From NCBI GenBank assembly GCA_043824495.1, contig JBDRSV010000010.1:41995-105994 (forward strand): 64,000 nucleotides of DNA, written 5' to 3'. How positions within the stretch are numbered: position 1 is the first letter of the stretch; every line of letters starts with the position of its first letter. A model generated the notes under the pieces. The model ran no database searches. It saw nothing but the letters and a program-made list of their open reading frames with translations, and had not been told where the DNA came from. Below are positions 25,590 to 32,057 of this stretch, in pieces. Made by a program: the position numbers and the translations under genes. This DNA comes from Candidatus Aenigmatarchaeota archaeon (lineage in GTDB: Archaea; Aenigmatarchaeota; Aenigmatarchaeia; QMZP01).

Positions 25590-26012
25590 ATGTATGAGCT
25601 AAAAAGAGTTGGCGTAGTATCTGTGGGTAAAATATTTGCTTTTATAGGTTTAATTTTGGGTATAATTAACGCCGTACTAATAGGTATAATATTAGTGGCT
25701 GCGGGAGAAGCTCTCGGTAGTCTTAGTGCATTATCATTGTTAACTGGAGGATCTGATCCAATATCATTATTCTTAGCAATGGGAATGGGAGCTGTTATAG
25801 TAGTGCCTATACTGTACGCTATCTCAGGTTTTATTGGAGGGGTAATAGTAGCATTTTTTTACAATCTTGCTGCCGGTAAAATCGGCGGAATAGAAATGGA
25901 TTTACAAAACGCAGGATCTAATGTACAAAGAGTTCAAAGAGAAGAAAAGTACCAACAGCCTCCACCTCCAGATAGATATCCACAAGATAAGTACCCAAGA
26001 AGATATTACTGA
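25590..26012 (+). CDS. Membrane protein (DUF3566-like)
   Basis: ELKRVGVVSVGK start, two TM helices, FYNLAAGKIGGIEM. Confidence 0.65.
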   Translation: MYELKRVGVVSVGKIFAFIGLILGIINAVLIGIILVAAGEALGSLSALSLLTGGSDPISLFLAMGMGAVIVVPILYAISGFIGGVIVAFFYNLAAGKIGGIEMDLQNAGSNVQRVQREEKYQQPPPPDRYPQDKYPRRYY

Positions 26013-27747
26013 TATTCATCTAGAAGTTCTCTTTCATCTGGTGTTAATTTACTTTCTATTTTCTTTAGTTTTTCTACATCTTCGTGAGAAAGGAAAACAT
26101 TGAGAACATCGCCTTCTATTATTTCTTTACCTATTGTAACTCCTTGCATAGAAACAGCTACTTTGTCTCCCATTTTTACTTTAGAGATATTATCTCCTCT
26201 AAGTTGAAGTTCTTTTATTTCGCCTACAATATCATTTCCTTTTTTGAGTCTATAGGCTGATTTTAGAGTTCCTTTCAAAACTTCAACACCGAAAATAGCG
26301 GGCTTGCTTGCCCTGAAAACATAACCAGGTAGAACTCTTACTCTTCCAGGCCTTGTTATACTTTCTAATATTCTAGCTTCTTTTCTGGCTCTTTCATCCT
26401 TTTTCCACTTTTCATAATCTTCTACGAGCCTGTAAATGACATCGGAATGGAATACAGATATATTGTTGTCTTGGGCCATTTTCAAAATATTAGAATCAAT
26501 TTTGATATTGAAACCAAAAATAACAGGATCTTTCAAAACTCTCATTTCCATTATATCAGATTTTGTGATGTTTCCTACAACAGCTTTTCTTATAGGGACA
26601 TTTTTATCTTTCAGTGTTTTAATCAAAGCCTCTAATCCTCCGAGTGTATCAGTTTTCAGAAGAGTTCCTTCATTCTGTGTTTCAATTTCAACCTCTTCGA
26701 CTTCTGCCCTTAGTTCTTCAATAGCTTGGTCTATATCGGATTCGTTTGCAACAGCCCTCAAAGGTGAACCAGGTATAACGTCTTCTAAATCAGAAGCGGC
26801 TATTTTTATTCCAGCAGCAGCAGATACGGTATCGACATTAACAAAATTACTATTTTTTAATTCTTTCAAAATCTCAGGTTCTAATAAAGCCTTGACTTTG
26901 GTTTTTATTATTTTGTTTCCACCAATAATTATACAGTCTCCTCTTTTGATATCTCCGTCATATAGGATAACATCTATTGTTGTTCCCAAACCACGAAAAT
27001 TTTTTACTTCAAGAACAGTTCCTTTACCTTCTCCATTAGTTAAGATAAGTCCTCTTTTTAGAAATTTCTGGGAAATACCACTTAGTGTCATAAGCAGTTC
27101 AGGAAGTCCTTCTCCGGTGTGAGCGCAAATTGGAACAACAGCTATTTGTTTTGAGAAATCTGATATCCTGTCTATTCTCTCAGCTTCAAATCCCCTAACA
27201 CCCAACTGTCCAATTATTTTATATATTTTTTCTTCTAGAGCATCTTGAACTCTTTCTGATTGACAATTGTAAGTAACAGTAAATGGCTTATCTTTTTGTG
27301 GCATCCAACCAGCAATTCTATCAAGTTTTGTGATGGCTACCATGAAAGGAGTTTTGAATTGTTTTAAGTAATTCAGACTCTCTTCAGTTTGTGGTTGAAA
27401 TCCTTCCATCACATCAATAACAAGAATGGCCAAATCAGCAATAGCTCCGCCTCTTTTTCTAAGAGTTGTAAAAGCTTCATGTCCTGGTGTGTCAACAAAC
27501 AATAAGCCAGGAATGGTTAACTTAATGTTCATCTTCTCCAACAAATTACCAGCAATTTTTTTAATTAGTTCTGTAGGAACTTTAGTTGCTCCTATTGTTT
27601 GTGTGATGGCTCCTGCCTCCCCTTTTACTACAGAGGTTCCCCTAATTTTATCCAGTAAACTGGTTTTACCGTGATCTACGTTTTCGGTTGAGATAATACT
27701 CAATGTCCGACTACGACCACGATAGGTGATCTGAGTTTTTCAATCAT
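26006..27747 (-). CDS. infB: Translation initiation factor aIF5B/IF2, two exons (27747-27705 and 27681-26006), 572 aa after splicing
   Basis: Exon 1 MIEKLRSPIVVVVG plus exon 2 gives the canonical GHVDHGKT; also GGITQ-like GAITQTIG, DTPGHE, TKLD and KTDTLGGLEAL. The spliced length of 1719 nt equals 573 codons. Confidence 0.92.
27682..27704 (-). other. 23-nt bulge-helix-bulge (BHB) micro-intron in infB
   Basis: AUUGAGUAUUAUCUCAACCGAAA. Central helix UCGG/CCGA, 3-nt bulges AC|A and AA|A, intron stem UUGAG/CUCAA, exon-exon stem CGUGGUC/GAUCACG. Confidence 0.85.
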
Positions 27748-29090
27748 ACTCGTTTTAGACTTTTATAAAAATCAAGTTCCTCCTTTCCTTTATTTGTAAA
27801 CGAATAAATTTTTTGTCTATAGTGGTTTTTATCAATTTTAGCTTTTAAATAGTTCTCTTCTTCGAGTCTCGTTAAGAACATTCTTGTGGTTATTTGGGAA
27901 AGCCTTAAAAATTTTGCAGATCCTAAACTTGTATTAAATCCGTTGTTAACAGAATCTAAATATTTGTAAAGATAAACTTTCTTATTATTAAAAATGTTTC
28001 TTACTAATTTATTTTTCCTTTTCTGATGAGTTATGCAACCTAATTTAAGTAATTTTATAAAATTACTTCTATTTGTTATTCTCACTGACCAATATCCCTT
28101 TTTACCCGTAATATAGTACATTTTACTTGTTCTTATTCCTATAATTTTGCATATATTCTTGAAGAATAATGCATTCTCTCTACTTTCTGTAGAAAAATTT
28201 ACTTCTTTATGAGAAACACCAATATCACCTCTTGACAATCCTCTGAAGGTCTCTATTGAAAATTGTTTTGAACTAAGTGTCAAGTTCATACAATATTCCA
28301 TAATGTAATAGAAAACCTCAGCCAACGTAGAGTTATGGATATTAAGAATACACACACCGTGTGATGCAGATACTCTAGAGTTCTTAATTATTTTTATATT
28401 GTCTTTTAATAGTCCAAACTCTGACCAATATTCTTCAAGATTTCGAATCGTATTTTGATCTTTTTCAGGAAATAGTATTTGCACTTTCCATAAATCCTTT
28501 TTTATACCTAAAATAGATTCAGCGGCTTTGACGAACCAAGCTATCTGAGATCCATCTGCATTAGAAAATGAAAATCTATCTAAATGCTTCCCTTTTTTTC
28601 TACTCTTAAAGCCTTCACAAAAATAAGCTCCAAAGAGCTCCAGTAAGCTATAATTCCCTTTTCTAATAGGTATGAGTTTTGGCAATTCAAATGCATTATT
28701 CCCCTTAGAGTAAATCCATAAAAGAAGTCTATTGTTTTCTAATTCAAATTTATGAAGAGGGTATCCTCTGATTGTTTCTCTTGGTATTATATTGAGTAGA
28801 TTTGCATAACCCTCTTTTTTTACGCTGTTTCTCTCTTTTGGAATACTTATTATATTAAAATAGATATTTTGTGGTGTCTTAATATTATTTGCAAGATGAA
28901 TAGGCACTGTAAATCTCACATCTTTTGTTGTTTTTAGCACAGCGGGAAATGTGGCATCTTTAATTTTTATTAGGGCTGGTTGAACATCATTTAATTTAAA
29001 CTGTCCTATTGAAGATTTTTTAGTTACAATAATGTAGCTAGATTGATTATGTCTGCCTTTGCTCTGTTCATAAATTCTTCCCTTTAACAT
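27744..29090 (-). CDS. Free-standing double-motif LAGLIDADG endonuclease-like protein with C-terminal winged helix
   Basis: LFGAYFCEG followed by FSFSNAD; second motif TFRGLSRGDIG followed by VNFSTE; C-terminal MFLTRLEEENYL...YSFTNKG. Its stop overlaps the infB ATG. Confidence 0.7.
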   Translation of the reverse strand: MLKGRIYEQSKGRHNQSSYIIVTKKSSIGQFKLNDVQPALIKIKDATFPAVLKTTKDVRFTVPIHLANNIKTPQNIYFNIISIPKERNSVKKEGYANLLNIIPRETIRGYPLHKFELENNRLLLWIYSKGNNAFELPKLIPIRKGNYSLLELFGAYFCEGFKSRKKGKHLDRFSFSNADGSQIAWFVKAAESILGIKKDLWKVQILFPEKDQNTIRNLEEYWSEFGLLKDNIKIIKNSRVSASHGVCILNIHNSTLAEVFYYIMEYCMNLTLSSKQFSIETFRGLSRGDIGVSHKEVNFSTESRENALFFKNICKIIGIRTSKMYYITGKKGYWSVRITNRSNFIKLLKLGCITHQKRKNKLVRNIFNNKKVYLYKYLDSVNNGFNTSLGSAKFLRLSQITTRMFLTRLEEENYLKAKIDKNHYRQKIYSFTNKGKEELDFYKSLKRV

Positions 29091-29629: not shown

Positions 29630-30484
29630 TTGACTATGGTTATAGCAAATGGTGAGCTGAAGGACAATATAAACATACAACCTACCAGCTCAAGCTATAT
29701 TGATATAGGAACATACAAAAGTTTAGGAAATTCTATTGTTTACTCTACTACACTCACAAGAACAAGAAGAAATTATTACGATTCAAAGAACGAGCTACCA
29801 GAAGGACATAGAATGTCCACGGCAGTAGAAGAACTTGCAATCCAGCTTGGCCTTGAAAGGGCAGGACAAGACCCAAGAAAAGCTGAAGTGCTCAACGATC
29901 TTTTCGGAAGGAAAAACAACGGATGGTATGCATTCCAATGGACAGAAACAGGATTAAGGGTACCTAAAGGATACGATCCAAACAGGACAGAGACAGACGA
30001 ACAAGGAAGAAAGTATTTCCAAAGAATTATTCTGATAGGCGACCAGGAAGTAGGTGAAGTGCTTGTCCCGGAAGGAAGCGGAAGAGCTATTATGGAATGG
30101 GACGAAGTGTTTGGGATACCAAGAGTAACCTCAGACAAGGCCGGAGACATGACGCTCGAAAACCACACAACTCATTTTTACTTTGATGCAAATCCAGGAC
30201 AAGACGATAAAAGCGGCGGATATGATGTATCCGTTGCCCGTGGGAGCGACTGGCATCACGCTGATCACGCTAGGTGCCTGGGCGTCTATGCGGCCTGCGA
30301 GCGTTGGTATGCGTACGTCAATGATGGTGTTCGTCCGGTTCAGGGTTCTCTTCCTGAGATCACACCAGAATTTGTGAGAATTGATCCCGGAATAGTGGAA
30401 GAAGCAAAGGCAAGAACGATAACAATAGACGATGATGCTGCAAACCTGACAGCAAGACAGTTTAAAGAAAAATATAGTGTATAA
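29630..30484 (+). CDS. DGR target (variable) protein with CLec-type variable region
   Basis: Contains the VR at 30231-30335, encoding ...RCLGVYAACERWYAYVNDGVRP. Likely start ATG 29636. Confidence 0.85.
   Translation: MTMVIANGELKDNINIQPTSSSYIDIGTYKSLGNSIVYSTTLTRTRRNYYDSKNELPEGHRMSTAVEELAIQLGLERAGQDPRKAEVLNDLFGRKNNGWYAFQWTETGLRVPKGYDPNRTETDEQGRKYFQRIILIGDQEVGEVLVPEGSGRAIMEWDEVFGIPRVTSDKAGDMTLENHTTHFYFDANPGQDDKSGGYDVSVARGSDWHHADHARCLGVYAACERWYAYVNDGVRPVQGSLPEITPEFVRIDPGIVEEAKARTITIDDDAANLTARQFKEKYSV
30231..30335 (+). repeat. DGR variable repeat (VR)
   Basis: Aligns to 30804-30949 with 13 substitutions, 12 of them at TR adenines; the 3' 17 nt (CAATGATGGTGTTCGTC) are identical. Confidence 0.95.
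30340..30357 (+). other. Hairpin 4 nt downstream of the VR (candidate DGR target-recognition hairpin)
   Basis: TCAGG-GTTCTCTT-CCTGA; positioned like the post-IMH hairpin of the Bordetella BPP-1 DGR. Confidence 0.55.
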
Positions 30485-30803
30485 ATAATTTCTTTTTGAA
30501 TTAAATACAATGGATACTTCAACTTTTATTTCCTTTGGAACCCCAGAGAGAGATAATTTCTTCTACTAACCCACATAGCCAGAGCGTTCCTGATTCTTTG
30601 TATAATCCGTCACTCTTTATAGTCCTGGCCAGAACCGGCTCCGTAACAGAACACACAGCCGGAGAACCCTGAACTATACGCCTGTTCATAGACGAAGCCA
30701 TATAAAATATGTGCTGATGACATGAAATTCAGCAGTGACAGCTAGTAAGCAGAGAAGAAAACTGAAACTGTGGTGAAATCTTGAGTGAACAAGCTACTGA
30801 ACA

Positions 30804-30949
30804 CCGTTGCCCGTAGGAGCAACTGGCATCACGATGATCATAGCGAAGCGCTATCATAAACGATAGGTGCCTGAACGTCAATGCGAACTACGAGCGTTGG
30901 AATGCGAAATTGCTGACAAGCGACGCAAACGGCAATGATGGTGTTCGTC
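30804..30949 (+). ncRNA. DGR template repeat (TR) with two inserts (30841-30860 and 30909-30929)
   Basis: AAC/AAT-rich copy of the VR, immediately upstream of the RT start. Confidence 0.93.
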
Positions 30950-30975: not shown

Positions 30976-32057
30976 ATGAAAACTCATGGCAAACTATACA
31001 ATAATATACACTCAATAGAGAACTCTATCTGGCATATAGGAAGGCCAGAAAAGGCAAAAGGAATCGACATTATGTAAAAGAATTTGAATATGATCTACAG
31101 AACAATATACTAAGCTTACAAAAAGAACTAACAGAGCTCACATATGGGCCTAATCCCCTGAAAATCTTTGTGATAAGGGATCCAAAAACCCGTGTAATTT
31201 CCGCATCTGATTTTAGAGATAGAGTTGTGCATCATGCACTATTCAACATCATTGAGCCGATATTTGAAAAAACATTTATCCATGACTCGTATGCAAGCAG
31301 GAAGAACAAGGGGACCCATAAAGCTATAGAAAGGTTTGACGAGTTCAAGAGAAAGACAGCAAGAAACGGAAAACTTATAAAAAATGCAAAAACAAACAAC
31401 ATAGTCATTGGCTATGTATTAAAAGCAGACATAAAGCACTATTTTGATTCAGTTGATCATGAAGTAATGATTAATATAATTAAAAAGAAAATCAGTGATA
31501 AGCACGTATTATGGTTAGTAAAGAAGATTCTGGACAACCATAACACCAAGATGCCATGCAAAGGAATGCCTATTGGAAACCTCACGAGCCAGACATTTGC
31601 AAACGTATATTTGAATAGCCTTGATTATTTTGTGAAACAAAAACTAAGGGCAAGATATTACATCAGATATCTTGATGACTTTGTCATATTTGACAGAAGC
31701 AAAGAGAAGCTGGAAAAATATAAAAATCAGATAAGCGAGTTTCTCAAAACAATAAAACTGGAGCTTCATCCCAATAAATCCAAGATAATACCCCTGCATA
31801 AGGGCATTAATTTTCTCGGCTTCAGAATTTTCTACTATCATAAACTTCTCAAGAAGAGTAATATCAGACTGTTCAGGAAAAGAACAATTGAATTAGAAAA
31901 GTCTTATATATGTGGGGAAACATCCAAAGACAAGTTATGCGAAAAGATCAACGGCTGGCTGGAATATGCAAGGCATGGAGACACATATAAACTGAGGAAA
32001 CGAATTCAAGATGAGATTTCTCATTTCTTAATGATTATAAAGAAAAAACCTCAATAA
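30976..32057 (+). pseudogene. DGR reverse transcriptase with a 1-nt deletion near 31023-31025
   Basis: ATG 30976 encodes MKTHGKLYNNIHSIEN; the shifted frame reads LYLAYRKARKGKRNRH...RDRVVHHA, KADIKHYFDS, GMPIGNLTSQ and YLDD. Confidence 0.9.

Follow-up and report, generated by a model that had tools for sequence, protein, structure and literature searches.

The window analysed here, a stretch of 64,000 nucleotides from the genome of a DPANN archaeon (Aenigmatarchaeota-family), contains a compact, chromosomal diversity-generating retroelement (DGR) on its plus strand. The target gene (29630–30484, +; 284 amino acids, start codon uncertain) encloses a variable repeat (VR) of 105 nt at 30231–30335 (+) and is followed by a structured RNA, RT-16 (30616–30802, +), the template repeat (TR; 30804–30949, +) and the gene for the reverse transcriptase (RT; 30977–32057, +). 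The target protein matches no Pfam family and no PDB sequence, and its AlphaFold model, computed from a three-sequence alignment, has a mean pLDDT of 32; an ortholog with 57% identity adjoins the orthologous DGR of a relative (L114, A4). The RT carries the motifs PIGNLTSQ and YLDD, corresponding to the (I/L)GxxxSQ and YxDD signatures of the DGR clade, matches RVT_1 with an E-value of 4.8e-25 and is 50–70% identical to the RTs of DPANN DGRs. No second VR is present in the assembly (~1.0 Mb in 29 contigs, 80% complete), the cassette having one VR only; when a further VR matching the unspliced TR was considered, the sole extra match (C3:511–528) proved to be an 18-nt intergenic chance match. An Avd gene is likewise absent from the 80%-complete genome by PF05635 search, and the cassette offers no candidate ORF for it; some DGR lineages are known to lack Avd. 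Between the aIF5B gene and the DGR target lies a 448-aa ORF on the minus strand (27744–29090) with weak matches to LAGLIDADG_3 and PadR, both under the Pfam cut-offs.

Repeat finding and alignment resolve the TR into three blocks that match the VR (30804–30839, 30860–30908 and 30930–30949) at offsets of 573, 593 and 614 nt, so that the TR holds 20 + 21 extra nucleotides. The TR is 41 nt longer than the VR, the whole excess lying in two inserts, and the two repeats become colinear only once both inserts, the bulge-helix-bulge (BHB) introns described below, are removed. With the three blocks joined, 92 of the 105 VR positions are identical to the TR. Twelve of the 13 mismatches fall at TR adenines, and all 12 occupy codon positions 1 or 2. 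The only mismatch at another base pairs TR G30933 with a T in the VR; this position is an A in the orthologous TR (L114, same sequence as L006), and G30933 is probably a drifted former A that changed to G after the last homing event. The spliced TR is in frame with the VR, and the unspliced TR has stop codons in the VR frame and is frameshifted, the latter as an initial annotation of this DNA had anticipated for a copied 20-nt insert. That annotation had also reported TR-only inserts of 20 and 21 nt, and our alignment agrees: its placement of the first insert at 30841–30860 is an equivalent register to 30840–30859, owing to an ambiguous A, and the second (30909–30929) is exact. In its register both inserts do end in AAA↓CG. 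Its statement that adenine-mutagenised positions continue on both sides of each insert holds for the first insert; for the second it holds only through the G30933/T site (ancestrally A) or in the annotation's own register, since no A-to-N change falls within the third block when the BHB register is used.

At the register that reproduces the VR junctions, both inserts can form a BHB, the archaeal splicing motif of two 3-nt bulges separated by a 4-bp helix, of which relaxed forms are tolerated by broad-specificity EndA (PMC5829648). The central helix is made by the four exon nucleotides that stand two positions before the 5' junction and the four intron nucleotides that stand two positions before the 3' junction; in both window introns it is complete (4/4 bp), with a 3-nt bulge at either end, the two lying on opposite strands, and with a 5-bp inner hairpin. 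Exon 1 (30804–30839, +) ends with its helix strand (30834–30837) and the bulge nucleotides TC, and intron 1 (30840–30859, +; 20 nt) reads [ATGA]TC↓A-TAGCG-AAG-CGCTA-[TCAT]AA↓A, where brackets mark the helix strands and arrows the junctions; its hairpin spans 30841–30853 and its own helix strand 30854–30857, followed by AA. Exon 2 (30860–30908, +) ends in the same manner with the helix strand TGCG (30903–30906) and the bulge nucleotides AA, and intron 2 (30909–30929, +; 21 nt) reads [TGCG]AA↓A-TTGCT-GACA-AGCGA-[CGCA]AA↓C, with the hairpin at 30910–30923, the helix strand at 30924–30927 and a terminal AA. Exon 3 (30930–30949, +; 20 nt) includes G30933. If each bulge is cut after its second nucleotide, the exact VR junctions result for both introns. 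The outer exon-exon helix of intron 1 comprises 2 contiguous base pairs plus a 6-bp GGCAUC/GGUGCC helix, and that of intron 2 is a displaced helix of 5 bp. A fold constrained to both BHBs reaches −43.9 kcal/mol, 0.7 above the minimum free energy of −44.6 kcal/mol, and the unconstrained minimum already contains the helix, bulge and hairpin of intron 2. Deletion between direct repeats was also considered and rejected, as the VR junctions do not result from the nearby ATCATA and GCGA repeats. The hairpins listed in the initial annotation (TAGCG/CGCTA and TTGCT/AGCGA) are real, but the defining 4-bp helix and the 3-nt bulges had escaped it. As judged from its predicted pairing, the TR is a split RNA gene of three exons and two BHB mini-introns.

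The same cell appears to splice a messenger RNA in this way, as had been suspected from the sequence beforehand. A 23-nt BHB intron at 27682–27704 (−) interrupts the P-loop codons of the aIF5B gene (infB) in the arrangement [TCGG]AC↓A-ttgag..ctcaa-[CCGA]AA↓A. Its removal by the same cut rule restores the motif GHVDHGKT. As read from the gene, this intron provides a positive control for the cut rule within the window itself and shows that the organism depends on BHB splicing beyond its tRNAs. The annotated ORF for aIF5B (26006–27703) has an artificial start at a TTG inside the intron. Among the 20 tRNAs detected by ARAGORN, nine contain introns (21–98 nt), some of them outside position 37/38, and many further tRNA genes were probably missed by the program as multiply split.

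The enzymes that would act on such motifs are represented unevenly in the available contigs. The ligase RtcB is found on contig C2 (PF01139, 477 bits). Its gene (G000 contig C2:319–3141; L103/L104) is a 1002-aa open frame in which the Pfam match is split into model residues 1–52 and 49–426, ~1.5 kb apart, an insertion of intein size. Searches for the splicing endonuclease EndA in the 29 contigs of the window's genome (80% complete), with PF01974 and by tblastn with the proteins of nine relatives, did not reveal it, one apparent match being traced to neighbouring genes. It occurs in 39 of the 41 genomes searched (40 relatives and the window's genome, where it was not detected), including a genus mate, and the introns in nine of 20 tRNAs imply that the window's organism probably has it as well. 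The relatives have EndA forms of ~185 and ~400 amino acids (e.g., 176 in L105:1474–2004 and 396 in L113:370–1557), and most genomes of the order have both. The ~400-aa form matches PDB 4fz2 over its full length (E 7e-100), which we take to be the epsilon2-type enzyme of ARMAN-2, an endonuclease of broad specificity that cleaves relaxed BHB motifs. The epsilon2 type has been described, and in 2018 was known only from Micrarchaeum-like organisms (PMC5829648).

We asked how general the interrupted architecture is by collecting RT homologues from 13 of 60 related genomes, from 80 DPANN contigs of a genome collection and from 80 metagenome contigs. In each locus, A-biased repeats were detected by self-BLAST, aligned with a strict affine scheme and tested for BHB geometry at the registers compatible with the VR. 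The resulting 109 TR/VR pairs (62 in a first set and 47 from metagenomes) contain 34 distinct TR-only inserts of 18–53 nt, distributed over 25 loci including the window, and not one long VR-only insert. In the first set, drawn from the relatives and the genome contigs, 62 pairs gave 26 unique TR-only inserts. A perfect 4-bp helix stands at the canonical position in 25 of these 26, where random positions gave 2.2 on average (never more than 8 in 2000 trials), and a perfect helix together with an inner hairpin of at least 3 bp in 22, compared with 0.17 expected (maximum 3 in 2000 trials); the random positions were taken from the same loci with an equal number of registers. Shifting either helix strand by 1–2 nt abolishes the pairing. 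The metagenome pairs served as an independent test: all eight new inserts have at least three of the four helix pairs and a hairpin of 5–10 bp, against 0.07 expected.

Over the combined set, the central helix is perfect in 29 of the 34 introns, the other five having only three of four pairs, and the BHB cut rule gives the VR junction in all 34. Among the introns, the exon side of the helix has 11 different sequences and the intron side 16, and no two of the 34 hairpins are alike. When helix partners are permuted among introns, the number of perfect helices drops from 29 to 6.2 on average (no more than 14 in any of 5000 permutations), and the outer 4 bp of the hairpins behave similarly (25/34 to 3.0); by this comparison of sequences, the helix partners covary across introns. 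The contiguous outer exon-exon helix in the relatives mostly measures 0–2 bp, being short or displaced, so that the motifs belong to the relaxed type, which requires an endonuclease of broad specificity; the EndA type found in the relatives fits such weak outer helices. A search for the bare helix-plus-hairpin rule, without reference to the VR, gives 12 matches in 38 colinear TRs, which makes the motif alone moderately specific. The BHB evidence draws its weight from the coincidence of the motif with the VR gaps.

These data bear directly on whether the inserts are removed from the RNA or are skipped by the RT, which could bypass structured inserts by template jumping during cDNA synthesis, with no RNA cleavage involved. 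The inserts are indeed rich in hairpins; the junction lies within an AAC or AAT triplet (AA↓Y) in 24 of the 34 introns, and Wu et al. (PMC5758913) put TR/VR length differences near AAC down to slippage. The position of the junctions, however, is not what bypass of the composite stem would produce, as this would delete 4 nt more, including the exon helix strand; the VRs keep the strand and exactly two bulge nucleotides, as the EndA cut rule demands. By inspection, the donor and acceptor sites in the window share only 0–2 nt of microhomology, and a shift of a single nucleotide in either helix strand is enough for the geometry to be lost. The same design, moreover, occurs in the essential aIF5B mRNA, which no RT reads, and DGRs with related RTs lack it on viral contigs: in 68 TR/VR pairs from such contigs, whose RTs are 35–45% identical to that of the window, we found no long inserts of either kind. 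We consider template jumping improbable. The initial annotation had proposed programmed skipping, either by RT jumps across extruded stems or by excision from the RNA; the excision branch is strongly supported by the BHB geometry at the VR-junction register in 34 of 34 inserts and by their covariation, and the jumping branch would have removed the 4 additional nucleotides.

The two intron sites of the window are shared with close relatives. Introns occupy both sites in G005 (L006, identical in sequence to L114) and in L116, with different loops and compensated stems (for example TTGCT/AGCGA, TCGTT/AACGA and TCTTTC/GAAAGA). The TR of L116 (L116:953–1142), whose RT is 65% identical, has three introns in ~106 nt, two of them at the window's sites. 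Its third intron, at ACGT CA↓A, lies where the window TR is continuous, and L014, L019 and L119 also have one in a comparable sequence setting, so that TR introns are gained or lost. In a quick RT tree, the window falls among 15 DGRs that form one clade, 14 of them with TR introns, and 10 more intron-bearing DGRs are scattered over the other 76 rows, which amounts to at least nine gains or losses (at least three of them forced by well-supported branches). In every intron-bearing TR, the 3'-most intron lies 16–42 nt from the end of the TR/VR homology.

Two loci, L098 and L193, have two VRs each, and all four VRs are without the TR intron. In L098, the two VRs differ in their A-to-N patterns on each side of the intron site, which indicates that they were diversified separately. 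Such loci suggest that the cDNA which homes is free of the intron, and they speak to the direction of the change. Formally, an insertion in the TR and a deletion in the VR are symmetrical, and the TR could be the ancestral colinear form from which the VRs lost segments; nothing specific favours this reading beyond the symmetry. It would require precise, independent deletions in every VR, in both copies of L098 and in both of L193, always at the BHB cut sites, and in the window the gaps add up to 41 nt and stops appear when the unspliced TR is read in the VR frame. We regard loss from the VRs as extremely unlikely.

The state of the window copy itself raises the question of decay. The RT gene starts at ATG 30977, and its first 14–16 codons are read from there; the remainder, down to the stop at 32057, is in a frame open from 31005. 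Relative to L114 and L116, the gene is one base short at ~31017–31026, which splits the reading frame, and the gap could be a genuine inactivating frameshift or else reflect an error of assembly. A BHB intron was considered as a cause of the break and rejected, as the two frames abut and exactly one base is missing compared with L114 and L116. Because of this 1-nt frameshift and the one A-to-G change in the TR since the last homing event, the window copy is probably no longer active. Both features would suit the view, raised as the alternative in the initial annotation, that the inserts are junk acquired by the TR once the DGR had died and that its non-colinearity is mere decay. Against that view, orthologous introns stand at both sites in G005 (L006/L114) and L116, where the RT frames are open; TR introns are the rule in the RT clade of the window (14 of 15); the VRs never carry long inserts, as the two intron-less VRs in each of L098 and L193 illustrate; and the BHB geometry covaries. 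Insertion after inactivation is accordingly a very unlikely origin, and, on comparison with these relatives, the TR introns are older than the decay of the window copy.

Directly upstream of the TR, RT-16 (Rfam RF03019) matches the full model with 66.6 bits (gathering score 50) and ends 1 nt before the TR. Of 20 related DGR loci, 18 have RT-16 on the TR strand just 5' of the RT gene, whether or not the TR has introns; in the window, as in the loci with compared coordinates, its end lies 1–3 nt upstream of the TR. Since it ends directly before the TR, the TR looks like its 3' extension. RT-16 was published as an orphan structured RNA near RT genes, some of the RT motifs having been speculated to be DGR-linked (Weinberg et al. 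2017, PMC5737381); the neighbourhood seen here is the same, but the RNA can now be placed precisely, directly 5' of the TR.

Taken together, we propose, with a probability of roughly 0.86, that the template RNA is spliced by the host's tRNA-splicing enzymes before mutagenic reverse transcription. In this model, the RT-16/TR region would be transcribed, and the end of each exon would base-pair with the 3' portion of the intron that follows it to form the 4-bp helix, the two 3-nt bulges and the inner hairpin. EndA would then cut after the second nucleotide of each bulge, making four cuts in all, and RtcB would ligate the exons. The resulting 105-nt spliced RNA would be copied by the DGR RT with adenine-specific errors, and the mutagenic cDNA would home into the VR of the target gene. 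We infer cleavage, ligation and the order of splicing before reverse transcription from the genomic data.

The proposed path combines elements of several known systems. Archaeal BHB introns of pre-tRNAs, pre-rRNAs and rare pre-mRNAs, which are cut by EndA and joined by RtcB, have the same bulges and helix at their exon-intron boundaries, and the window comes from an intron-rich genome; in contrast to these cases, the host RNA here is the template of a retroelement, and the spliced product would be read by an RT and written back into DNA. The cassette otherwise resembles the published DGRs of Nanoarchaeota and other DPANN archaea (Paul et al. 2015, PMC4372165; the CPR/DPANN set of Wu et al. 2017, PMC5758913) in its DGR-clade RT, the A-rich TR upstream of the RT, the VR near the 3' end of the target gene and the adenine-specific differences. 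In those reports TR and VR are treated as colinear, whereas the TR described here is interrupted, and Paul et al. (2015; PMC4372165) make no mention of splicing, bulges, gaps or insertions. One of their published single-cell genomes, SCGC AAA011-G17 (L026), carries, by our alignment, a BHB-type insert of 18 nt that lies 16 nt short of the TR end. In the literature searched, we found no description of DGRs combined with BHB splicing; a DGR and a splicing endonuclease appear together only in a general study of protein-family variability.

An experimental precedent exists for the use of a spliced template. When the td group I intron was engineered into the TR of Bordetella phage BPP-1, the bRT used the spliced TR RNA (Naorem et al. 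2017, PMC5703328). As we propose for the present TR, the intron was spliced out of the RNA, and the product then served as template for the mutagenic cDNA. The td intron, however, was an experimental, self-splicing tag, whereas the present introns are natural, short (18–53 nt), as many as three per ~105-nt TR and conserved across a lineage, and their class, BHB, depends on proteins for splicing. Differences in length between TR and VR have been noted before, in ~7% of DGRs and mostly beside AAC, and slippage was proposed (Wu et al. 2017, PMC5758913). Those described here are long, always TR-only, structured and covarying, and the location of 24 of 34 junctions in AAY may reflect the same signal. 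For the present TR-only differences, splicing appears to be the better explanation than slippage, and some of the published length differences in DPANN DGRs may be cases of the same phenomenon.

Why a template should carry introns invites a further, more speculative reading. The introns are dense (up to three per ~105-nt TR), nearly universal in one RT clade (14 of 15) and placed so that the 3'-most always lies 16–42 nt from the TR end, and for these reasons they might, rather than being passengers, act as a safeguard or a licence: TR DNA that is not colinear with its own cDNA would be shielded from being overwritten by mutagenic homing and from recombination with the VR, and diversification would be tied to the host's capacity for tRNA splicing. 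We hold this to be possible but rather doubtful. It nevertheless frames the question that the architecture raises, namely whether the role of the introns is to protect the master template or to gate hypermutation.

To our knowledge, no DGR of the uncultivated DPANN archaea has been studied experimentally. For the detection of these elements, programs that demand colinear repeats would truncate or miss many archaeal DGRs, and splicing offers an alternative account of TR/VR length differences earlier put down to RT slippage. If the proposed path is true, the TR introns would constitute a new class of substrate for EndA and RtcB, and would be a natural counterpart of the classic demonstration, by intron loss, that information passes through RNA. 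A domesticated retroelement would then depend on the archaeal tRNA-splicing machinery, which would join two systems thought to be unrelated.
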